From: Candidatus Avidehalobacter gallistercoris
GTDB taxonomy: Bacteria; Bacillota; Dehalobacteriia; UBA4068; UBA4997
Assembly: GCA_018715045.1 (NCBI GenBank)
Contig: DVMH01000027.1
Span: 6,306-70,305, forward strand
DNA: 64,000 nt
Direction of reading: 5' to 3'
The notes under the pieces were generated by a model that was given only the letters and a program-made list of their open reading frames with translations, was not told where the DNA came from and ran no database searches. The position numbers were made by a program, and so were the translations under genes. This document shows, in pieces, positions 3,601-46,239 of the stretch. Positions within the stretch are counted from its first letter, which is position 1. Every line of letters begins with the position of its first letter.

Positions 3601-6600
3601 GAGGCGCACCACTCAACAGCGTATAGCCTGTCTGCGCCACTACGTCAACAGTTTTTGTTGTCGCATTATCAGCAAATGCGCCGCCGTTAGCGTTATAAGT
3701 CAGAGTGTAGACATCCTCCGCCACATCAGCCGTACCATCGTTGTTGGTGTCGTAACCCCAAACCGCGTAAAGAGTCGTGTTAGTGTTCGGCATCGTATAC
3801 TGAGCGCTCGCTGCATATACGGTCAGAGCAGCAAATTCCTGCTTGTCTTCCAGGCTGTATATCTTATCCGTCTTAGTTTCCGTCCAGCCGATGAAAGCCA
3901 CTGCCTTGCCATCCACATTGCTGTGCGCCGGTTTATCCACCGACAGGGCAACAGTTGTGCCACCCTGTATACCGCCCTGCTGAGCAGGCACCCCTGTTAC
4001 CGTGCCCTCGATCGCATTGCCGTTATAAGTAAGCAGATATGTTGCCGTAGTAGCATCATATGCATTGGTGACGGTCACGCTCTTATCTAAGGTCACAGTA
4101 CCACTTTTGTCCGCATAATTGATGTAACCGCCCTGGCCGACCGCAGCAACTACATCTCCGGTAAACGCAGGTGTATAACCGTCAACATGAGTCTGCGTCA
4201 ACTGATATTGGGCGCCCACGGGCAGACCCTCAATCACTGCCGTATCCCCAGCTTTCAGGCTGAACGTACCGCCATTGCTTATTTTTGTGCCAGAATCAGT
4301 GTTGTTAATCTTAATCGCATATGCGCCGGAAAGAGCAGTCTGACCATTCAGGTTAGAGAGATTCAGGGTATAAGTAAACTCCTGATCTTGATTTGCACCA
4401 TCTCCAGTGGTAGCATCCACAGTCACGGTAAGGCTGCCGGTAAGCGCAGCCTCCGTCAGCAGGCCGTTGTTACCCAGACGCACGGTGACCTGCCCATTAG
4501 CAAACACGGGATAGTTATATGTCGATGCGGTATCGGTCACATTTGGAGATTTAACGAAATTCGCATCGGCTACGCGGGAGAGCTTATCGGTACCCGCTTT
4601 GATGTACAGAACGCTATCCACTATCATAGCGTTGTTTGATACACTAATACGGCTGCCGTCTTCCAGCATATGATAATCGGTCAGCTTATCGGCAGCATCG
4701 CCTATGCCAGTTGCCTGATAGTAAACATGCTCATAATAATAGGCAAGACCAGGCGTATAGCCTGTCGCCGGCTGAAGCCGGTAAGCAACGTCGTTAACAT
4801 TTACCACATTCTGACCCGGCAGAATAGTCGTTTGACCTGCCGCCGCGGCGGCTGCTTCGGTAAGGTAGGTTGTTGTGCCGCCTGCTGTATTTACCAGATT
4901 ATAGAGAACGGTATCCTCGGTGTACTTATAGAAAGCGTTGGATGATGCGGGCGTGAACACAGCAGTGGCAGTACCATACTGCTCGTCGCCCTGCGTGGCG
5001 CTATCATATTCCCCTGCATAGTAACTGGTTACACCGTTCAGGGAATTAGCCGTCAGATAATCGTTATCCGCAACGCCCCAGGTGTGCGTATCATCTTTGG
5101 CCACCGAGTAAAACAGGCGGATGGGATAGGCATTCTTACCCTCCTGAATAGCATAGGAGATTGTTCCGTTCGGGTCTACGGCAGCCGTGGCCGTGACTGT
5201 ACGCAGCGGCAGAAGATTAGCCGGAATCGTCCAGCTCAACATATTCAGATCATTGTCGCCTTTGGTAACGGTCAACTGGATTGTATTCAGATTGCCGCCG
5301 GGGTAAATATCATTGGCATCGATTTGTTGACTGGGGAAAGTATAGGTTGTCGTATCACCAATTGTATTCGAAGTTACAGCGTCATACTTATTGCCACCAA
5401 ACACGATAGACGGCATACCGGTCACATTCATATATGCCCCCAGCTTATCGGTAAAGGTCAGCACCTTACTATCGCCGCCAGTACCCGCCACGCCCTCAAT
5501 CTCGGTAGTCGGGAAAGAAGGATTGACGGTATTCACCTGATTTATTATTTGATCAAAAATGTTTTGCCAAGCGTCTCCTGTATCAAGATCCGTGGCAGCA
5601 AAGTAACCGTCATTGTACTTCAGGTCATCCAAAGTCAACTCAGTGTTGCTTCCGCGATAAATGGTCTGATATATGTGCCTATCTCTTATAGCAGCTTGTG
5701 CACGCATCAACTGAACAGAAGAATTATTAAATGATTCTAAAGCATCCTTTACAAGTACATTTTCTATACCTATTTGCAAAGCATCCGTCAGAGTTGCCTG
5801 TGGATTCAGCACCAGTTCAGCCATGGTTTTATCGGAATCATTTGTCAGATCGCCCAAACCCACGGTGTAGATATAAGGCTGCTTGCTGTTTCCGTTGTAG
5901 GTATAGTTTTCTTCTATGGCCTGCTTACCATAAGCCGCTGTCAGCAACGATAAAAAACTCTGAGCAATATAGTTCTGCGGGTTAAGATTTGCAATCTGTC
6001 CATCAATATTAAACGGATTTACATAACTAGACTCTTCCATTGCTTGCGGAGTGCCTACATAAAGCTCGTTTCCTCTTTCAGGGTTGCCGCTGGCCATGGA
6101 GATCACCACCGGAACGCGCAACACGGTTTCGGTTTGCCCGCTGGTATTTTTAACCTCAGCCGTTACGTCAGCCGCGCTGGAAAGATTATACATACCCTCG
6201 TTAATGCCCACCTGATAATTCCGATAGCAGGTGCTGTCAAAATCAAAGGCTATCGAGACCAACGGCTGGCCGGTCAAAATACCCCGCGAAGCAACACCGT
6301 CTTGAGTCCGAACCAGAAGTTGAGTGGTTGCGGTTCCATTATCATAGTTCTCATAATGATTCAGAGGCAGCAGGGTCAGTGAGGTGTTATCATAAGTAAC
6401 CACACTAACTCTGTTTTGCGGGTTGGAAACCAGAATCTCACGCAAAGCTGCATTTGCAGCCACAAGCATTTCATTCACATACTGCTCCATATCGGGCGAC
6501 ATATCCAGCACCAGAGAAACATCCATAGGAATCTGTGTCTGATCAATGATCGTGGCAGTCGAACCCAGGGCGGACAATACCACCTGGAAGTCTGCATCAG

Positions 6601-7061: not shown

Positions 7062-7099
7062 AAAAACGCCCCCGGCCAAATGGCCAGAGGCGTTTTTTT
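7062..7099 (-). terminator. rho-independent terminator downstream of hppA; the A/T flanks suggest it could work in both directions
   Basis: aaaaaaa-cgcccccggcc-aat-ggccagaggcg-ttttttt. Imperfect GC-rich stem flanked by A7 and T7. Confidence 0.6.
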
Positions 7100-7121
7100 A
7101 TGCATTTTGTTATCTATCTGT

Positions 7122-9164
7122 TTACAGGAACAGGGGCACGAAGACCAGCGCGATAATCGTCATCAGCTTGATCAGAATGTTGATGGACGGACCCGAAGTA
7201 TCCTTGAAAGGATCGCCCACAGTGTCGCCGTTAACAGCCGCCGCGTGCGCATCAGAGCCTTTGCCGCCAAAGTGGCCGCCCTCGATGTACTTCTTGGCGT
7301 TATCCCAGGCGCCGCCCGCGTTGCTCATCATCACAGCCAGCAGGAAACCGGTCACCAGAGAGCCGGCCAGCAGACCGCCCAGAGCCTCAGGCCCCAGCAC
7401 CAGGCCGACAAACAGCGGCGCAACCACAGCCAGCACAGCCGGCATAACCATCTCACGCAGAGCCGCCGTAGTAGAGATATCCACGCAGCGGGCATAATCC
7501 GGCTTGGCAGCGCCCTCCATCAGGCCGGGGATTTCACGGAACTGACGGCGCACCTCAGTAATCATATGCGAAGCCGAACGCCCCACAGCGCTCATTGTCA
7601 TCGCAGAGAACAGGAATGGCAGCATACCGCCGATAAACAGGCCGATAACCACCATCGGATTCATAATATCAATATTGGTAACTCCCGCTGCCTGCGTGTA
7701 GGCGGAAAACAGCGCCAAAGCAGTCAGCGCAGCAGAACCAATAGCAAAGCCCTTGCCGATGGCAGCGGTGGTGTTGCCAACCGCGTCCAGATTATCGGTG
7801 ATCTCACGCACATGGTGTTCCAGACCGGCCATCTCAGCAATGCCGCCAGCATTATCGGAAATCGGGCCATACGCGTCAACCGCCACCACAATGCCGGTGG
7901 TGGAAAGCATACCCACAGCCGCGATGGCAATGCCGTACAGACCGGCAAAGTAAAACGCAGCGCCGATACCGCAGCAGATAACGATGATCGGCAGCGCGGT
8001 GGAAGTCATCCCAGTGGCAATACCGGAAATGATGTTGGTCGCAGTGCCAGTCTCGCAGGAAGCGGCAATGTCCTTAACCGGCTTATAGTCAGCCGAAGTG
8101 TAATATTCGGTGATCTTACCAATCAATGTACCGGCCACCAGACCAGCCACACTGGCAATGAACACGCCGGTGTTGGTGTACATACCGTTCTGGAAAGTTT
8201 CCGGCAGAACAAACTTGCAGATAACGAACGTGCCCACGATAGAAAGCAGCGTTGCCACATATGTACCGGCGTCCAGAGCTTTCTGGGGGTTTTTGCCCTC
8301 GCCCGTGCGCACAAAGAAAGTGCCGATAATGCTGGAAACAATGCCCCAGGCCGCCAGCAGCAGCGGCACGATAACGCCCTCGCCGTTATCTCCGATAGCC
8401 AAAGACGCGCCCAGCGCAATGGCTGCAATAACAGAACCAACATAAGATTCAAACAAGTCGGAACCCATACCGGCCACGTCGCCGACGTTATCGCCCACGT
8501 TATCAGCAATAACCGCCGGGTTACGCGGATCATCTTCGGGAATACCGGCCTCAACCTTGCCAACCAGGTCAGCGCCCACGTCGGCAGCCTTGGTGTAGAT
8601 ACCGCCGCCCACACGGCCAAACAGAGCCACGGACGAAGCGCCCAGGCTGAATCCGTTAATAATGTCAGACTGACCGGGGAAAAGCAAAACCACAATACCC
8701 AGACCCAAAAGACCCAGGCCAACCACGCTCATGCCCATAACAGCGCCGCCGGAGAAAGCCACGCTCAAAGCCTTGTTCAGGCCGGAGGCCTGCGCAGCAT
8801 TGGCAGTTCTGGCATTGGCCTTGGTTGCAATACGCATACCGATATTGCCAGCCAGAATGGAGCAGACCGCGCCAATCAGGAAAGGAACGGCAGTCAGCGG
8901 ATTCAGGCCGCCCTCAGTGCCGCCGGTAATCATACCGGCCCCCACGATGACCAGCGCCATAACCACGACGAAAATAACCAGAGTTTTATACTGACGGCCC
9001 AAAAAAGCCATTGCGCCCTCATGGATAGAATTCATAATCTCCACCATGCGGTCATTGCCGGGCTCCACAGCCGTCACCCGCTTGGCCAGCACCACTGCGA
9101 ACAGCAATGCCAGCACGCCGGCCAACGCACCGATCACCGGAGCGTAATTCATAATGAAATCCAT
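7122..9164 (-). CDS. hppA: membrane-bound proton/sodium-translocating pyrophosphatase (V-type H+/Na+-PPase)
   Basis: 680-aa polytopic membrane protein. Conserved [18 protein letters not shown] block plus further conserved PPase motifs. Confidence 0.9.
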
Positions 9165-9218
9165 AGTTCTCTCAAAATCCTCCTAACTTTGCCTTAAAAC
9201 GATTGAATCCCTGCGGCA

Positions 9219-9440
9219 TTAAAGAGCCGCCAACAACAGCGTCAACGCCAGAAACAGCACCGCCGCCACTATAGAGAGCTTGGAAAACAGTTCATCCATA
9301 CCCTTCTTTTTGCCGAAGAACGTCTCCGCGCCGCCCGCGATGGAGCCGGAAAGCCCGGCGCTCTTGCTGGACTGCATCAGTACCGTCACAATCAGCGCAA
9401 TGGCGCACAGCATCTGCAAAATCATCAGCACAGTAGTCAT
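9219..9440 (-). CDS. secG: preprotein translocase subunit SecG
   Basis: 73 aa with two TM segments and a Gly-rich loop: LMQSSKSAGLSGSIAGGAETFFGKKKG. Confidence 0.75.
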   Translation of the reverse strand: MTTVLMILQMLCAIALIVTVLMQSSKSAGLSGSIAGGAETFFGKKKGMDELFSKLSIVAAVLFLALTLLLAAL

Positions 9441-9666: not shown

Positions 9667-10707
9667 ATGCACATTCACGGCGGCGACATTTACACTTATC
9701 AGAATATGCTGGATTTTTCGGCCAACATCAACCCTCTTGGCATACCAGAGAGCGTTGTGCGGGCAGCAGCGGCGGGAGCGGCGGCCTCCGCATCCTATCC
9801 CGACCCAAAATGCCGCCGGCTGAAAGCGGCTATAGCGGCGCACGAACAGACGCCGGAGGAGTATGTCGTCTGCGGCAACGGCGCAGCGGATCTGATCTTC
9901 CAGCTGGCGTTGGCTGCAAAACCCAGGCGCGCCCTGCTGCTCGCCCCCGGTTTCCATGAATATGAACAGGCTCTCCGCACTGTAGACTGCCAGGTTGATT
10001 TCTTCTATCTTAAAGAGGAAGACGGCTTCCGGCTGGCCGACGCCTATCTGGAGGCACTCACTCCAGGTCTGGATATCGTGTTTTTGTGCAATCCTAACAA
10101 TCCCACCGGGCTGGCCGTGCCGCGCCCGGCGCTGCTCCGGATATTGGAGAAATGCCGCGACATCGGCGCCCGTCTGGTCATGGATGAGTGCTTCAACGAA
10201 TTCCTGGACGAGCCCGCCGCCTATAGCCTTAAGCCAGAGCTATCCGCTTATCCCAACCTGTTCATTCTGAAAGCGTTCACCAAGATATACGCCATGCCCG
10301 GTTTGCGTCTGGGCTATGGCCTATGCGCTGACCAGGCGCTGCTGGCGGCCCTCGCCGAAGCCGCTCAGCCATGGAGCGTATCTATCCCCGCACAGGAGGC
10401 AGGGCTGGCAGCGCTCACGGAAACCGAATACGTCGCCCGCGCCAAGGCGCTGGTCAAAGACGAGCGGGAACGCCTACAAGACGCCCTGGCAGCGCTGGGC
10501 TGCCGAACCTACGGTTCTATGGCCAACTATATATTCTTCCGCAGCGTGCCGGGATTGGCTGAGGCCTGCCGCGCGCATAACCTGCTGCTGCGGGATTGCA
10601 GCAACTATCAGGGGCTTTGCCCCGGCTATTTTCGTGCGGCAGTGAAGCTGCCGGAGCAAAACAACCAACTGCTGGCCGTTCTGACTGCGGTATTAGCCGA
10701 ATTTTGA
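9667..10707 (+). CDS. cobD: L-threonine-O-3-phosphate decarboxylase (class I/II aminotransferase fold), cobalamin biosynthesis
   Basis: N-terminal HGGDIY...DFSANINPLG signature and PLP-aminotransferase fold. RBS aggagg lies upstream. Confidence 0.8.
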   Translation: MHIHGGDIYTYQNMLDFSANINPLGIPESVVRAAAAGAAASASYPDPKCRRLKAAIAAHEQTPEEYVVCGNGAADLIFQLALAAKPRRALLLAPGFHEYEQALRTVDCQVDFFYLKEEDGFRLADAYLEALTPGLDIVFLCNPNNPTGLAVPRPALLRILEKCRDIGARLVMDECFNEFLDEPAAYSLKPELSAYPNLFILKAFTKIYAMPGLRLGYGLCADQALLAALAEAAQPWSVSIPAQEAGLAALTETEYVARAKALVKDERERLQDALAALGCRTYGSMANYIFFRSVPGLAEACRAHNLLLRDCSNYQGLCPGYFRAAVKLPEQNNQLLAVLTAVLAEF

Positions 10708-10731
10708 CGGCTGATTTGCAGCAAAAACCGA

Positions 10732-10761
10732 TTGACTTTCGCGGATTTTTTATGTTAAAAT
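10732..10761 (+). promoter_or_regulatory. sigma-70 type promoter for the MFS-CBS transporter leader
   Basis: -35 TTGACT at 10732-10737. An 18-nt spacer leads to an extended -10 TGtTAAAAT at 10753-10761. Confidence 0.55.
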
Positions 10762-10973
10762 AGCTCTTGTGCCAAAGGCACCAACAACTTTATAATTACA
10801 GAAAAACAAACGGTAACGACACATGTTTAGCCATGCTAGTAAATCTGATTACGGCACCGTAATACAGAGCATAGGCTGAAGCATGTGCCGTTTTTTGTTT
10901 ACCGGAAAACGAACGCCAGCGCCCAAGCGGCGTTATTTTTTTCTGTAATTAATATCAGAAAGGAGATCTTTTT
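10762..10973 (+). promoter_or_regulatory. long structured 5' leader carrying two intrinsic-terminator-like hairpins; candidate attenuator or riboswitch of unknown class
   Basis: Small hairpin gtgcc-aaa-ggcac at about 10769-10781. A 13-bp stem (10820-10832 pairing with 10874-10887) encloses the ttacggcaccgtaa hairpin and is followed by T6 at 10891-10896. A second hairpin cgcc-caagc-ggcg is followed by T7 at about 10917-10942. A perfect 13-nt long-range inverted repeat aattacagaaaaa (10794-10806) / tttttctgtaatt (10938-10950) brackets the element. RBS aggag precedes the GTG start at 10974. Confidence 0.45.
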
Positions 10974-12842
10974 GTGACTCAGACACAAAACTCGAACAAC
11001 GTATCATCCCGAATCCGCAGGCCAGAACTAATGATTTTCGTGGCCGCCTTTTCCGCCTTTTTGGCCACTTTCAATGAAACGTTCCTGAATGTAGCGTTCA
11101 CGCAGATCATGGACGATCTGAATGTCGGCGTGGCGACAGTGCAGTGGCTTTCCACCGCCTATATGCTGGGAGCGGCGGTTATGGTGCCGATCTCGGCCTT
11201 TTTATACCGCAGCATACCCACCAGGAAACTGTACCTTTTCACTGTCGCCCTGCTGGTAATCGGCAGCGCTGTCTGTGCCTCAGCAGGTAATTTTACTGTT
11301 TTGCTGGCTGGCCGCATTGTGCAGGCCTTCGGCACCGGCATGTTGATCCCGATCGGCATGAACATCACGCTGGAAGTTGCGCCTAAGCGCAAACTGGGAG
11401 CTTATATGGGCTTAATGGGCGCAATGACCACCCTCGGCCCCTCCTCCAGCGTGATTCTGGCAGGTCTGTTCCTGGCGCTGGCCGATTGGCACGCCATGAT
11501 CTGGTTTTTCTTTACGCTGACCGTACTTTGTTTTATCTGCGGCGCACTGATGCTGGACAATATTTCCAGGCTGACCTATCCCAAGCTGGACGCGCTCTCG
11601 GTAATTTACATCAGCATCGCCCTGATCGGCATACTTTACGGCATCTCCACCGTCTTTATGGGTAATCTGAAGCTGGCCGTCGCCGTTATACTGCTGGGCG
11701 CGGTGTTTCTGAGCGCTTTTATACGGCGGCAGAGCCGTCTGGAGCAACCGCTGATCAAGCTGACTCCTCTTGCTATCAAACCCTTTGCGCTGGGCGTATT
11801 GCTGAATATGCTGGCGCTGCTGGTGATTTTCGCCATGAATATCGTCACACCGATGTTTCTGCAGAGCGGTTGGGGAGTCTCTGCGCTGGCGGCCTCGCTG
11901 ACCCTGTTCCCGGCAATTTTGCTTTCCTGCTTTTTCTCGCCGCTGGCCGGGCGCATTTATGACAAACACGGGGCCGCAATCCTGCTGCCGCTGGGCTTCA
12001 TATTGATCGGTCTGGCGGCCGGCGCTATCGGCCTCACCCATTCCACCGGCAACATCTATCTGCTTTCGCTGCTTTATATCCCGGTGATCTGCGGCTCAGC
12101 CCTGATCATCGGCCCGGTGCAGAGTCTGGCATTATCGAATCTCTCGTTTGAGGAAAATCCCCACGGCGTCACCATTATGAGCACCGGCTTTCAGATTGCA
12201 GGCTGCCTCGGCGCGTCGCTGTTTTCCGGCCTTTATTCGCTTTATCCCACAGCGGGAGGCGGCTTCACCGCCAGCTGCCTGCTTGCAGCAGCCACAGGCG
12301 CGCTCGGCCTGCTGCTGGCCCTTCTGGAGAACAAATGGAGCAATCAGCAAGCCGCTTATCACCAGACTGACAGAATGACCGGTATCGCCGCCTTTATGAA
12401 CCGCACGCCTTACAGCGTGAGCAACAGAGCCACTGCCCTGGACGCGTTGCTTTGCATGGCGGAACATAAAACCAGCGGTCTGCCTATCGTCAATGATCAG
12501 ACACAGGTCTGCGGTTTTATCTCCGACGGCGATATTATCCGTTATATGGGCGGTCTGGAAATGGAACCAAACAATTTTTCCCTGCGCTATCCGCTATGGC
12601 AGAGCCTTGACAAGCTGGACGACCGTCTGGCCAAGCTCAGCAGCCTGAAAGTTATGGAATTGGCCACCAAAGAAGCGGTCTGTATTGAGCAAAACGCCAG
12701 CGAACAGGAACTTTTTCACATCTTCGCGGATAAGCGTATCAAAAAAGTGCCGGTTCTCAACCAAGGCCGGTTAAGCGGCATTGTCAGCCGTTCCGACCTG
12801 CTGCGGCAGCTAATAAATCAGGCTATGGCCAGGCAGCAATAA
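10974..12842 (+). CDS. MFS (DHA-type, about 12-14 TM) transporter fused to a C-terminal CBS-domain pair
   Basis: GTG start behind an aggag RBS. The N-terminal roughly 460 aa have an MFS topology. The C-terminal roughly 150 aa carry two CBS motifs: GLPIVNDQTQVCGFISDGDIIRY and VPVLNQGRLSGIVSRSDLLRQL. Confidence 0.8.
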   Translation: MTQTQNSNNVSSRIRRPELMIFVAAFSAFLATFNETFLNVAFTQIMDDLNVGVATVQWLSTAYMLGAAVMVPISAFLYRSIPTRKLYLFTVALLVIGSAVCASAGNFTVLLAGRIVQAFGTGMLIPIGMNITLEVAPKRKLGAYMGLMGAMTTLGPSSSVILAGLFLALADWHAMIWFFFTLTVLCFICGALMLDNISRLTYPKLDALSVIYISIALIGILYGISTVFMGNLKLAVAVILLGAVFLSAFIRRQSRLEQPLIKLTPLAIKPFALGVLLNMLALLVIFAMNIVTPMFLQSGWGVSALAASLTLFPAILLSCFFSPLAGRIYDKHGAAILLPLGFILIGLAAGAIGLTHSTGNIYLLSLLYIPVICGSALIIGPVQSLALSNLSFEENPHGVTIMSTGFQIAGCLGASLFSGLYSLYPTAGGGFTASCLLAAATGALGLLLALLENKWSNQQAAYHQTDRMTGIAAFMNRTPYSVSNRATALDALLCMAEHKTSGLPIVNDQTQVCGFISDGDIIRYMGGLEMEPNNFSLRYPLWQSLDKLDDRLAKLSSLKVMELATKEAVCIEQNASEQELFHIFADKRIKKVPVLNQGRLSGIVSRSDLLRQLINQAMARQQ

Positions 12843-12922: not shown

Positions 12923-13447
12923 ATGACTGGGCTTATTCACATCTATACCGGTGACGGCAAAGGCAAAACCACCGCAGCCGTAGGGCTGGCCGTGCGCTGC
13001 GCGGGCAGCGGCGCAAACGTCGTGTTCTGCCAGTTTTTGAAAAACAACCAATCATCTGAGCTGAATATCCTGCGGATGATACCGCAAATCACACTGGTGC
13101 AGACTGCGCCTACCCTTGGCTTCTATAAAAGTATGACGGCGGAGCAGCGGACTGAATCTAAGCATATCTGCATCGGCCTGCTGGAAAAGGCGATAACTGC
13201 CGCGCTTACCAACAACGCTCGTTTGCTGGTGTTGGATGAGGTCGTGGCTGCGTATAACCACCAAATGCTTGACCGGGAACGTTTGCTGGCATTTCTGAGA
13301 GAGAAACCGGCGGAACTTGAGATTGTTCTGACCGGGCGTAAGCCCGCGCCGGAGCTTATCGAGCTGGCCGATTATCTTTCGGAAGTAACAAAGCTGAAAC
13401 ATCCGTTTGACCGTGGTATCCCCGCCCGCCGGGGCATCGAAAAATAG
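12923..13447 (+). CDS. cobO: cob(I)yrinic acid a,c-diamide adenosyltransferase (ATP:corrinoid adenosyltransferase)
   Basis: IHIYTGDGKGKTTAAVGLAVR P-loop with BtuR/CobO-type downstream motifs. 174 aa. Confidence 0.85.
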   Translation: MTGLIHIYTGDGKGKTTAAVGLAVRCAGSGANVVFCQFLKNNQSSELNILRMIPQITLVQTAPTLGFYKSMTAEQRTESKHICIGLLEKAITAALTNNARLLVLDEVVAAYNHQMLDRERLLAFLREKPAELEIVLTGRKPAPELIELADYLSEVTKLKHPFDRGIPARRGIEK

Positions 13448-13507: not shown

Positions 13508-13547
13508 ACGCGAAATAAAGTATAATTTTCTATACTATATAATAAAA

Positions 13548-13820
13548 ACTCTGCGCGGTGCCGCAAGGCATAACAGGGAAACAGGTTCAAATCCTGTACT
13601 GTCCCAGCAACCGTGATACTGACGAACGGGCGCACAGCCACTATTCCGCAGGAATGGGAAGGAGCCCTATTAGGAAGAAGTTAAGTCGGTAGACCTACCG
13701 CAGGCAGTTACTTTCTGGGCAAAAGCATTATGGTCTTACTATGCCGTAATGAAACAGACTGGCAGCGCCGGCGGAAAGTGACCGCGTTCATTCCGTCCGG
13801 CGCTTTTATTTTTGCAATTT
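13548..13820 (+). promoter_or_regulatory. cobalamin (AdoCbl) riboswitch with terminator expression platform, leading the cbiP operon
   Basis: Conserved core gggaaacaggttcaaatcctgtactgtcccagcaaccgtga. B12-box-like gccact segment. Terminator gccggcgg...ccgtccggcgcttttattttt sits just upstream of cbiP. A candidate promoter (-35 TTGTCT 13497-13502, -10 TATAAT 13520-13525) lies upstream. Confidence 0.8.
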
Positions 13821-13834
13821 AACGAGGTGTAAGC

Positions 13835-15319
13835 ATGAAAGGCATTATGATACAGGGCTGCTCCAGCGACGCGGGCAAAAGCTATGTGGCGACAGCGCTG
13901 TGCCGTGTGTTAGCCGATATGGGGCGCAGGGTTTCGCCCTTTAAGAGTCAGAATATGTCCAATAATTCATACGTCACGTGGGACGGCGGTGAGATTGGCC
14001 GGGCGCAGGGCGTGCAGGCCGAGGCCGCGGGCGTTATACCGGAGACATACATGAACCCCATTCTGCTGAAGCCGCAGAAGAACAGCGGTTCGGAAATCGT
14101 GCTGTTCGGACAGGTATATAAGAGTATGCCGGGAAGCGAGTATCACGCGCATTTTACCATGAACGAAGGCATACAGGCCGTGCGAAAGGCGCTTGGCATT
14201 ATCGCAGCCAATTACGACACTATTGTTATCGAAGGCGCGGGCAGTCCCGCCGAGGTGAACCTGAACGCGCATGAGATCGTTAACATGCGCATTGCCAGAG
14301 AAGCCGACGTACCGGTGCTGTTGGTGGCTGACGTCAACCGGGGCGGCAGCTTCGCCTCCATCGTGGGCACTTTGGAGTTGCTGGGCGAGGACAGAAACCG
14401 CGTTAAGGGAATCATCTTCAACCAGTTTCGCGGCGACATCGCCCTGTTCACCGATGGCGCCAAATGGATAGAGGAATACACCGGCGTCAAAGTGGTGGGC
14501 GTTCTGCCTTATTTCACCGATATCAACATTGAGGGCGAGGATTCTTTAAGCATCAATTTTGAGCATACCTCCGGCGCGGCGCGCCCCATTCGTATCGGCG
14601 TGGTAAAGCTACCGTACATATCCAACCACACTGATATGGAAATTTTCCGCTATGAGCCGGACGTTGACGTGCGGCAGGTGGATGAATTCACGGAACTGAC
14701 AGATTTTGACGCCATAATTCTGCCCGGAACCAAAAGCACCATCGCCGATTTGGCATATCTGGAGCAAAGCGGCTTGGCCGATAAAATCCGGCGTTTTCCC
14801 GGTTTCATCTATGGTATCTGCGGTGGTTATCAGATAATGGGGCAGAAGATGCTTGACCCGGACGGCGTTGATTTTAAGCCCGGTTTTCAGGCGGCGGGGC
14901 TGGGGCTGCTCCCACTTGTCACCCGATTTCAGCCGCAGAAGCACGTGCAGCAGCAGCAGGCGCGTGGCCTGCATCCCATGCTGGGCGGTATGACGGCGCT
15001 TGGCTATGAGATACACCTTGGCGAAAGCGAGCTCGTCTCCGATACGGCTCTTCCCCTATGGCAAATAGAGCGGCATACTGACGGCGCGGCCACCCCGGAC
15101 TTGCGCGTGGCCGGGTCATACCTGCACAATGTATTCCATAACGACACATTCCGCAATATCTGGCTGAACCAAATCCGCAAAAGCATTGGTTTAAAGCCGT
15201 TGCCCCCGGTGGATACCGCCGCCATTAAAGAACAGCAATACGCCAAACTGGGCGAATATGCCAGAAAGTATCTGGACATCGACTATATCCTCCGCCTGAT
15301 TGACGGCAAAAATCAGTAA
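13835..15319 (+). CDS. cbiP: cobyric acid synthase
   Basis: 494 aa. N-terminal GCSSDAGKS nucleotide-binding motif and a C-terminal glutamine amidotransferase domain. Confidence 0.9.
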   Translation: MKGIMIQGCSSDAGKSYVATALCRVLADMGRRVSPFKSQNMSNNSYVTWDGGEIGRAQGVQAEAAGVIPETYMNPILLKPQKNSGSEIVLFGQVYKSMPGSEYHAHFTMNEGIQAVRKALGIIAANYDTIVIEGAGSPAEVNLNAHEIVNMRIAREADVPVLLVADVNRGGSFASIVGTLELLGEDRNRVKGIIFNQFRGDIALFTDGAKWIEEYTGVKVVGVLPYFTDINIEGEDSLSINFEHTSGAARPIRIGVVKLPYISNHTDMEIFRYEPDVDVRQVDEFTELTDFDAIILPGTKSTIADLAYLEQSGLADKIRRFPGFIYGICGGYQIMGQKMLDPDGVDFKPGFQAAGLGLLPLVTRFQPQKHVQQQQARGLHPMLGGMTALGYEIHLGESELVSDTALPLWQIERHTDGAATPDLRVAGSYLHNVFHNDTFRNIWLNQIRKSIGLKPLPPVDTAAIKEQQYAKLGEYARKYLDIDYILRLIDGKNQ

Positions 15320-30984: not shown

Positions 30985-31059
30985 TCCTCGATAGCTCAAC
31001 GGTAGAGCACTCGGCTGTTAACCGAGGGGTTGTTGGTTCGAATCCAACTCGGGGAGCCA
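30985..31059 (+). tRNA. tRNA-Asn (anticodon GTT), CCA encoded
   Basis: Cloverleaf drawn by hand. Acceptor stem tcctcga/tcgggga with one G-U pair. D arm gctc...gagc. Anticodon stem ctcgg/ccgag with loop ctGTTaa. T arm gttggttcgaatccaac. Confidence 0.8.
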
Positions 31060-31107: not shown

Positions 31108-31184
31108 GGGCCATTAGCTCAGTTGGTTAGAGCCACCGGCTCATAACCGGTCGGTCTCAGGTTCGAGTCCTGAATGGCCCACCA
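31108..31184 (+). tRNA. tRNA with CAT anticodon (elongator Met or Ile2-lysidine type), CCA encoded
   Basis: Acceptor stem gggccat/atggccc. D arm tagctcagttggttagagc. Anticodon stem accgg/ccggt with loop ctCATaa. T arm aggttcgagtcct. Confidence 0.8.
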
Positions 31185-46221: not shown

Positions 46222-46239
46222 GCAAGGGAGGAAAATCAA

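Follow-up and report, generated by a model that had tools for sequence, protein, structure and literature searches.

The window analysed here is a 64-kb stretch (64,000 nucleotides) of contig DVMH01000027.1 from Candidatus Avidehalobacter gallistercoris, and coordinates given without a locus name refer to it. On its + strand lies a gene (10974-12842) whose product, an MFS transporter of 622 aa (Pfam MFS_1 and CBS), is of the DHA2/EmrB/LmrB type; it is preceded by a 212-nt leader that carries a conserved RNA element, a candidate aptamer, at 10804-10866 (+). The best NCBIfam matches of the transporter were TIGR00711 with 191.6 bits (cut-off 230.2) and LmrB with 222.9 bits (cut-off 800), and its closest solved structures are EmrB, EfpA and QacA. 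The protein is related to the DHA2 transporters, falls below the curated cut-offs and bears an extra CBS pair at its C-terminus (MFS-CBS hereafter).

The leader begins behind a sigma-70-type promoter at 10732-10761 (+), composed of a -35 hexamer TTGACT (10732-10737), an 18-nt spacer and an extended -10 element TGtTAAAAT (10753-10761). The consensus scan matched 10 of the 12 consensus positions as well as the extended -10, with TG at 10753-10754 and TAAAAT at 10756-10761, exactly where a previous reading of the DNA without database searches (the sequence-only reading) had placed the promoter. TTGACT and TG.TAAAAT form conserved columns in the alignment, and both hexamers are kept in every orthologous leader. 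Transcription is predicted to start near 10768. Immediately 3' of this position, a small hairpin, GUGCC-AAA-GGCAC, was identified from the sequence and the fold at 10769-10781 (+), in agreement with the sequence-only reading. Among the orthologous leaders, this hairpin is limited to the window and the loci L029 and L006 and is not present in the others; its pairing is kept with changes (GUGC/GCAC in L029, GCGC-AAA-GCGC in L006), and it may stabilise the 5' end of the transcript. At the other end of the leader, the predicted ribosome-binding site (RBS) AGGAG (10961-10965) and the GTG start codon (10974-10976) were both confirmed on the + strand, and both align in the orthologues. The 212-nt leader has a minimum free energy (MFE) of -73.7 kcal/mol, compared with -43.4 +/- 4.0 kcal/mol in dinucleotide shuffles (z = -7.5), and none of the 200 shuffles was as stable. 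No open reading frame (ORF) of at least 50 aa was found on either strand of 10764-10973.

Conservation and occurrence of the leader element

A covariance model (R1), built from 30 distinct sequences, matched the leader at 10804-10866 with 69.4 bits (E ~4e-18), and a scan of the whole window returned this copy only; across the members of the family, R1 scores range from 49 to 79 bits. From 5' to 3', the consensus consists of the 5' strand of a closing helix P0 (3-6 nt), a linker (1-3 nt), a first joining strand AACGACACAYGUW, a hairpin P2 (N-AGC, a loop of 3-6 nt and GCU-N'), a second joining strand GUAAAUCUGAUYACGG followed by N(A), the 3' strand of P0 (3-6 nt), a variable segment (6-93 nt) and a terminator 3' strand ACRUGUGU with a U-run. 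The core, AACGACACAYGU - P2 - GUAAAUCUGAUYACGG, is almost invariant across the members.

In the window, these parts follow one another on the + strand. The 5' strand of P0, ACGGU (10810-10814), pairs with its 3' strand, ACCGU (10856-10860), in the unconstrained MFE structure of the nascent RNA, while in the terminator fold the latter joins the CUGAUUACGG/CCGUAAUACAG helix instead. The first joining strand AACGACACAUGUU (10815-10827), whose columns are invariant or near-invariant in 30-34 sequences, also serves as the 5' strand of the first terminator (T1) and pairs with 10882-10892 in the full-length fold. It is followed by P2, UAGC-CAU-GCUA (10828-10838), which was recognised from pair counts and by RNAalifold, and by the invariant strand GUAAAUCUGAUUACGG and a C (10839-10855).

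The element was found in more than 30 distinct sequences, which belong to Clostridia and to Gordonibacter-like (Eggerthellaceae) loci. The transporter has numerous homologues. Orthologous MFS-CBS genes with 50-90% protein identity keep the element behind a sigma-70 promoter of their own, and in every bacterial orthologue examined the upstream gap of ~160-300 nt contained both the promoter and the core sequence. An exact-pattern scan of one genome per species (185,579 species) yielded 19 loci with one match each. The motif is real in 18 of them, all from Clostridia/Bacillota (Peptococcaceae, Oscillospiraceae, Peptostreptococcaceae, Eubacterium, Lentihominibacter, Zhenpiania and Clostridium tanneri), and the remaining match (L023) is apparently a chance match in coding DNA. 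A second pattern, in which GUAAAUCUGAUYACGG was left unspecified, retrieved 12 metagenome loci, and the 16-mer was unchanged in 11 of the 12. The Gordonibacter-like loci were matched by R1 with 52.7 bits (L047 and L048) and 59.2 bits (L049), and the source name of the L047 protein is Gordonibacter urolithinfaciens. In two of these loci, part of the conserved strand is duplicated right after the motif, as AUCUGAUGACGG after AUCUGAUCACGG (L047, 3895-3915; L048, 540-560). The motif was not found upstream of the orthologue labelled Methanocorpusculum (L046), where a ~45-nt direct repeat, cctcctatcagttaacttctaatagggtggaaagatatattctgt, occurs in two copies (3836-3880 and 3935-3979). Nor did the viral and plasmid sequences searched contain any copy of the element.

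The MFS-CBS gene lies downstream of the element in nearly all loci, while the remaining neighbourhoods of the orthologues are unrelated to one another (GntR with an MBL-fold protein; spoIIIA; ETF; Crp; gcvP with crcB; genes of a type IV secretion system; aldo-keto reductase with flavodoxin; HSP90; rhodanese). The locus L029, from a metagenome-assembled genome of Peptococcaceae, encodes a transporter with 90% protein identity and shares the cob context of the window. In L019, L027 and L045, the downstream gene encodes a DUF2798-type membrane protein instead of MFS-CBS. This protein has ~180-200 aa (+83 to +622 from the motif in L019) and showed a weak to moderate match to the family in the two of the three loci that were scanned against Pfam. 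The association with the element may provide the first functional clue for DUF2798. Two further loci depart from the common arrangement. In Clostridium tanneri (L020, NZ_JARUJP010000003.1), the motif at 5413-5475 is followed by an RBS without a clear ORF; an EmrE-like SMR gene (PF00893) lies 340 nt 3' of the motif, followed by genes for MarR and TetR regulators, and the locus may have been remodelled. In L030 (980-1100), the motif is followed by ~18 of the first MFS codons and then a stop codon, which looks like a deletion remnant that has kept the leader.

The diversity of neighbourhoods bears on whether the conserved nucleotides are read by a protein rather than by a small molecule. A trans-encoded RNA-binding protein that recognises P2 and its flanks and holds GACACAYGU would also prevent termination, and we regard such protein-mediated antitermination as the main rival to a riboswitch, albeit an unlikely one. 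Like RAT (ribonucleic antiterminator) sites, the conserved nucleotides extend over the 5' half of the terminator, the extreme conservation with few assessable pairs would suit a protein-recognition site, and P0 is weak in many members. Nevertheless, the neighbourhoods are wholly different and no regulator gene is conserved beside the element, its core is identical across two phyla, no Rfam model of a protein-binding leader matches it, and it possesses a covarying closing helix as well as tandem diverged copies, both of which are typical of aptamers.

These tandem copies were found in four loci (L016, L022, L034 and L037), each with a terminator of its own. They are situated ~60-100 nt 3' of the first motif (e.g., L037, 2283-2344), with terminators of the form AACGGCACACGU...GUAUUUUGAUUAUGG or GUAAUUCUGACUACGG...GUGUGUCGUUU, and are changed at otherwise invariant positions. 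Only the second copy of L037 received a meaningful R1 score (24 bits, E ~4e-4). The tandem copy could be a variant of altered specificity or part of a cooperative tandem switch; in the former case, the pair could act as a natural two-input gate.

Covariation, terminators and competing folds

P2 is paired in 99% of the sequences, and covariation is seen at two of its four base pairs. The outer pair is G-C in 21 sequences, A-U in 6, U-A in 4 and G-U in 1, and the second pair, otherwise an invariant A-U, becomes U-A in the Gordonibacter-like loci L047 and L049; RNAalifold predicted the hairpin independently. The pairing of P0 differs by lineage, being CGG(U)/(A)CCG in the long forms and AUG/CAU, AUGU/ACAU, AUGUA/UACAU, UGU/ACA or UUG(U)/(A)CAA in others. 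In a gap-free alignment, P0 was paired in 58% of the sequences compared with 19-35% when the partner was slid, and a second count gave similar figures, with slid controls of up to 37%; the window's own group lies off register by one column in these counts. The covariation score of 0.29, against at most 0.16 in the slid controls, was reached by none of 500 shuffles, and a permutation that compared each sequence's own flank with the flanks of other sequences gave p ~1e-4. Covariation thus lends moderate support to P0 as a predicted helix. A further complementarity in the window, between AUCAGA (10954-10959), just 5' of the RBS, and the invariant UCUGAU (10845-10850), was considered as a means of RBS sequestration and set aside as probably fortuitous, the pairing being intact in L029 but weaker in L006 and missing from the other loci.

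The stretch at 10861-10896 (+) would constitute the expression platform, in which the variable segment AGCAUAGGCU is followed by the 3' strand of T1, CAUGUGCCG (10882-10890), and by a run of six U (10891-10896). With a stem of at least 11 bp directly followed by this run, T1 is an intrinsic terminator. The sequence-only reading was right about a long hairpin ending in T6 at this place, but the three-way junction that it proposed was replaced in the MFE structure by an extended hairpin with internal loops. An equivalent of T1, a stem running directly into a U-run, is present in all members. The stem (P1) is formed by GACACAYGU and ACRUGUGU, and its Y:R pair is C-G in 19 sequences, U-A in 10 and U-G in 5 but never C-A, with a U-run following in 34 of 34 sequences. 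GACACAYGU is conserved in its sequence, beyond the ability to pair, and at the same time provides the 5' half of the default terminator.

The two folds compete for the same nucleotides. For the nascent window RNA (10806-10862), the unconstrained MFE structure was exactly P0 plus P2 (-9.9 kcal/mol), while the full window RNA folded into the long terminator hairpin at -34.2 kcal/mol, compared with -16.4 kcal/mol when P0 and P2 were enforced. The completed terminator fold consumes the conserved nucleotides, and in the window the variable segment invades P2 through the pairing AGCCAUGCU/AGCAUAGGCU. The MFE structure of the complete element was the P1 terminator with its U-run in all 32 representatives folded. 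The inner pairings of this fold vary by lineage, as the variable 3' segment pairs either with P2 and its loop (e.g., AGCAU/AUGCU) or with CUGAU, a variation to be expected of an expression platform rather than of an aptamer helix. The element accordingly displays two general features of riboswitches, namely a conserved structured aptamer with covariation (covarying P2, moderately supported P0 and a near-invariant core in two phyla) and, on the computed folds, a platform that is mutually exclusive with the aptamer.

In the short forms, where the element spans ~70 nt, an equivalent promoter precedes the motif by a few tens of nt, the RBS directly follows the U-run, and no promoter consensus is evident in the short gap between them. 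The gene of a short form could then be expressed only by read-through of the terminator. Many short forms also carry an ATG 4-6 nt 5' of ACGAC that shares its frame with the invariant UAA of GUAAAU, and the regulated genes resemble drug-efflux genes. These features raise the idea of ribosome-mediated attenuation, in which antibiotic stalling on a leader peptide (e.g., MKTTHVEHSS in several short forms) places the ribosome on GACACAYGU and blocks the terminator. Leaders of the erm, bmrCD and vmlR type act in this way. We give it very little credence here, and rejected it as a general mechanism, as a conserved short ORF with a Shine-Dalgarno sequence is lacking. At this place a start codon is missing from the window and from every other long form, where the frame meets TAG after five codons. 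Among other members, L022 and L034 read ATG-TAA, L014 and L021 use other frames, and L017, L027 and L045 possess no start codon. No Shine-Dalgarno sequence precedes the ATGs, the ATG and a CAT farther 3' covary as the two sides of an RNA helix, and the invariant AAUCUGAUYACGG beyond the stop codon would remain unexplained by a peptide.

The long forms possess a second hairpin with a T-run, which is found in all of their leaders with unrelated sequences. In the window this is a second intrinsic terminator (T2, 10912-10942, +), where AACGCC (10912-10917) and GGCGTT (10929-10934) form a GC-rich stem of 6 bp, followed by an A and T7 (10936-10942); besides the fold, a terminator scan recovered the hairpin at 10918-10934 with the T-run in the following bases, so that the second small hairpin of the sequence-only reading was borne out. 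In L024 (~5620-5660), the stem sequence of P1 recurs in the second terminator (GACACACG...CGUGUGU), where it encloses a plain GC hairpin. The 3' strand of the first terminator and the 5' strand of the second show perfect complementarity, suggestive of a relay. We nonetheless discarded a T1-T2 relay as a general feature, the complementarity being clear in L024 and inconsistent elsewhere.

Finally, T1 and T2 are enclosed by an inverted repeat with arms at 10793-10806 (UAAUUACAGAAAAA) and 10938-10951 (both +), recovered by a repeat search. It is perfect, as previously noted, over 14 nt rather than 13. By chance, 0.09 occurrences of the 13-mer with at most one mismatch would be expected in the window, and a single copy of the arm with one mismatch occurs elsewhere, at 46239. 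The repeat is confined to the window, L029 and L006, where the arms show no substitutions and hence no covariation; in L006 the pairing extends over 11 bp, beyond which the 5' arm diverges. Because its 3' arm shares nucleotides with the U-run of T2, formation of the outer helix requires that transcription has read through, and the helix cannot serve as an antiterminator. The proposal that the repeat forms a long-range helix competing with the terminators is not supported, the repeat being confined to one lineage and showing no covariation, and the switching parts would rather be P0, P2 and the joining strands.

The repeat nevertheless invites the question of whether the whole unit is an independent small RNA (sRNA) gene or a miniature inverted-repeat transposable element (MITE) that does not regulate the transporter at all. 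The unit has its own promoter and terminators, in the window its perfect terminal repeat is flanked by TA, and gene and leader occur together in varied contexts, once near conjugation genes. Both possibilities appear highly improbable and were rejected for several reasons. Each genome locus yielded a single match, the window holds one copy, and no viral or plasmid copy was found; the inverted repeat does not extend beyond a single lineage; and the element invariably precedes the same gene family, immediately 5' of it and in one orientation, without a separate promoter between the U-run and the RBS in the short forms.

Proposed switching mechanism and comparison with known systems

The idea of an orphan riboswitch or attenuator, raised by the sequence-only reading, has withstood the comparison with homologous loci, which keep the element and in which the stems covary. 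We are highly confident that the element is a conserved cis-acting RNA for transcription attenuation. As for its nature, we lean towards a rare, previously unclassified cis-regulatory RNA in which an aptamer of ~55 nt is embedded in the terminator and acts as a ligand-binding ON riboswitch. Direct binding of a ligand, the ON direction and a ligand that is the compound exported by the DHA2-type MFS-CBS pump are what we infer from the arrangement. The ON direction is suggested by four observations: the terminator is stable by default with no antiterminator alternative visible; the RBS of the short forms comes directly after the U-run; the regulated proteins are exporter-like (DHA2-type MFS, DUF2798 in three loci and SMR in one); and four loci carry the tandem diverged copy with its own terminator. 

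In the mechanism that we propose, transcription would start from the conserved promoter and the nascent RNA would fold the aptamer first, with P0 (10810-10814/10856-10860) and P2 (10828-10838) in place and the joining strands AACGACACAYGUW and GUAAAUCUGAUYACGG presumably forming the binding pocket. If the ligand is bound, GACACAYGU would be locked in the aptamer, ACRUGUGU could not pair with it, and the polymerase would pass the U-run (10891-10896), so that the exporter is switched on. Without the ligand, the downstream strand would displace the aptamer, the variable segment would pair with P2 or CUGAU, and the resulting long terminator would stop transcription at 10891-10896. Ligand contacts would be expected in AACGACACAUGU and GUAAAUCUGAUUACGG, and read-through of T1 would depend on P0, P2 and GUAAAUCUGAU.

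The same RNA class could also be imagined as an OFF switch, in which the ligand stabilises a pseudoknot of P0, P2 and P1 and thereby promotes termination. P1 is present in every minimum-energy fold, and P0 and P1 occupy different nucleotides, so an H-type pseudoknot containing both is feasible, which counts against an ON switch. We nevertheless consider an OFF switch decidedly improbable. The terminator fold is favoured without a ligand (-18 to -38 kcal/mol) and no antiterminator is visible; such a switch would hence be permanently off. Moreover, the 5' strand of P1 is conserved in its sequence and not just in its pairing, which suggests that it takes part in the aptamer core, the genes under control resemble exporters, and the linker between P0 and P1, just 1-3 nt, is short for spanning a 9-bp stem.

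Further points weigh against an ON riboswitch. P0 is short, with just 3 bp in many short forms, it pairs poorly or in a shifted register in L014, L017, L027 and L037, and a few clades (CGG/CCG, AUG/CAU and UUG/CAA) contribute most of its covariation. MFE folding showed P0 in 12 of 32 nascent RNAs; it was mostly missed in the short forms because a P0 of 3 bp is too weak. As most core positions never vary, pairings within the core are not assessable. Specific complementarity between each P2 loop and the 3' segment of the same sequence, which would reveal selection for the helix that extends the terminator, was just marginal (p = 0.04) and is not counted as strong evidence. T2 is present in the window without evident regulation, and a trans-acting RNA-binding protein, as discussed above, could read the same conserved nucleotides.

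Turning to known RNA families, we scanned the window with Rfam 15, including its curated riboswitch, leader, T-box and sRNA families. At gathering thresholds, only a cobalamin riboswitch (13539-13716) and two tRNAs passed in the window, and 18 loci gave nothing at the motif; a permissive search (E <= 10), applied to 10650-11050 and to one tandem short form, returned noise below 20 bits only. The earlier impression that the leader belongs to no recognised riboswitch class is thus corroborated. No description of the element was found in the literature searched (by sequence strings, by associated gene families, in two genome surveys from the Breaker laboratory and in the guanidine-IV/Gd4v paper), a coverage that is incomplete, so that prior publication is possible.

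The closest architectural parallel is the HMP-PP (thiS motif) riboswitch, a terminator-embedded ON riboswitch (Atilho et al., eLife 2019, PMC6478431). Its main fold is a classic intrinsic terminator with an abnormally conserved loop, which competes with a consensus fold of stems and a possible pseudoknot, and it occurs in two phyla with an exclusive gene association, tandem arrangements and ON logic (PMC6478431). We liken the element to this class because its conserved strand doubles as the 5' half of the default terminator, a pattern that also led to the recognition of the HMP-PP riboswitch; a candidate aptamer embedded in an intrinsic terminator with a conserved loop, a competing fold, two phyla, a consistent gene association, tandem copies and the proposed ON logic are shared, a likeness of architecture only. 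The element shows neither the thiS consensus nor a match in Rfam 15 and does not belong to that class. In addition, its genes are MFS-CBS, DUF2798 and SMR, whereas those of HMP-PP riboswitches are thiamin genes, and its closing helix lies partly outside the terminator, on the 5' flank. To our knowledge, a sensor wholly within a terminator has so far been known essentially from HMP-PP riboswitches.

The guanidine-IV (mepA) riboswitch consists of two hairpins joined by a loop-loop pseudoknot, and Gd4v is an orphan candidate variant enriched in gut metagenomes (PMC7736828; PMC9788692). They resemble the element in having conserved nucleotides in and around a pseudoknot and in being associated with efflux proteins. 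The element, in contrast, comprises one closing helix, one hairpin and two long conserved strands, has no Rfam match and precedes genes for DHA2 MFS-CBS and DUF2798 proteins instead of SugE, MATE, GNAT and transaminase. In a wider sense, several ON riboswitches control exporters (fluoride/crcB, guanidine-I to -III, Li+/Na+ and yjdF), where a toxic solute induces its own exporter by antitermination. In its proposed logic the element is closest to this group (guanidine, fluoride and Li+/Na+), but it is unrelated in sequence and structure, and no Rfam model of these classes matches it. RAT sites, which are bound by BglG and SacY, are conserved RNAs over the 5' half of a terminator whose stabilisation prevents termination, and PyrR and TRAP act on their own leaders. 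Unlike RAT sites, the element is not linked to a gene for a PRD-type or any other regulator, differs in consensus and size, has a covarying closing helix and occurs in tandem copies.

Tentatively, with a confidence a little short of even, we propose that this element is the founding example of a new class that senses an unrecognised toxic or signalling small molecule relevant to gut anaerobes and turns on the DHA2-type MFS-CBS exporter and, in some species, the DUF2798 protein. The kind of system is a familiar one, but if confirmed it would add a riboswitch class with a rare terminator-embedded architecture. Orphan riboswitches of exporters have repeatedly exposed unsuspected agents, such as fluoride, guanidine and Li+/Na+. 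If our proposal is true, the ligand would likewise show what the MFS-CBS and DUF2798 proteins, widespread though uncharacterised in gut Clostridia and Eggerthellaceae, export, and would assign a first function to both families. Caproicibacter fermentans, Gordonibacter urolithinfaciens and Clostridium tanneri are cultivable carriers of the element or of a close relative (the short leader of C. fermentans lies at about 3,029,900-3,030,020 of CP060286.1), and the compact short forms would make an attractive genetic part.

The cob context and other genes of the window

The MFS-CBS gene of the window is situated among genes for corrinoid metabolism. A gene for a CobD-type aminotransferase (9667-10707, +) precedes the leader, and cobA/btuR (12923-13447, +), which is probably co-transcribed with the MFS-CBS gene, comes after the transporter. 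The cobalamin riboswitch (RF00174, 95.4 bits; 13539-13716, +) lies 5' of cobQ (13835-15319, +), which is followed by cbiB and further genes on the same strand. RF00174 matches this riboswitch and not the leader element, and with this canonical riboswitch upstream of cobQ, the cob cluster has B12 control independent of the MFS-CBS leader; L029 shows an identical layout.

A corrinoid or adenosyl ligand had been suggested for the leader by the sequence-only reading. The cob genes are adjacent to the element only in the window, L029 and L006, while the other loci lie in unrelated contexts, and a corrinoid or cobamide-precursor ligand was dropped as the cob context is confined to one lineage. The exporter-type transporter points to an ON switch that senses a compound to be exported, as opposed to an OFF switch that governs the uptake of a cofactor.

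On the - strand, 5' of these genes, the window encodes an H+-pyrophosphatase (7122-9164; PF03030 in the identical locus L001) and secG (9219-9440). A 705-aa ORF on the opposite strand (7080-9197, +) had no Pfam match and is regarded as a shadow of the H+-pyrophosphatase gene. The two tRNA genes lie farther downstream on the + strand, at 30985-31056 (70.5 bits) and 31108-31181 (69.1 bits).

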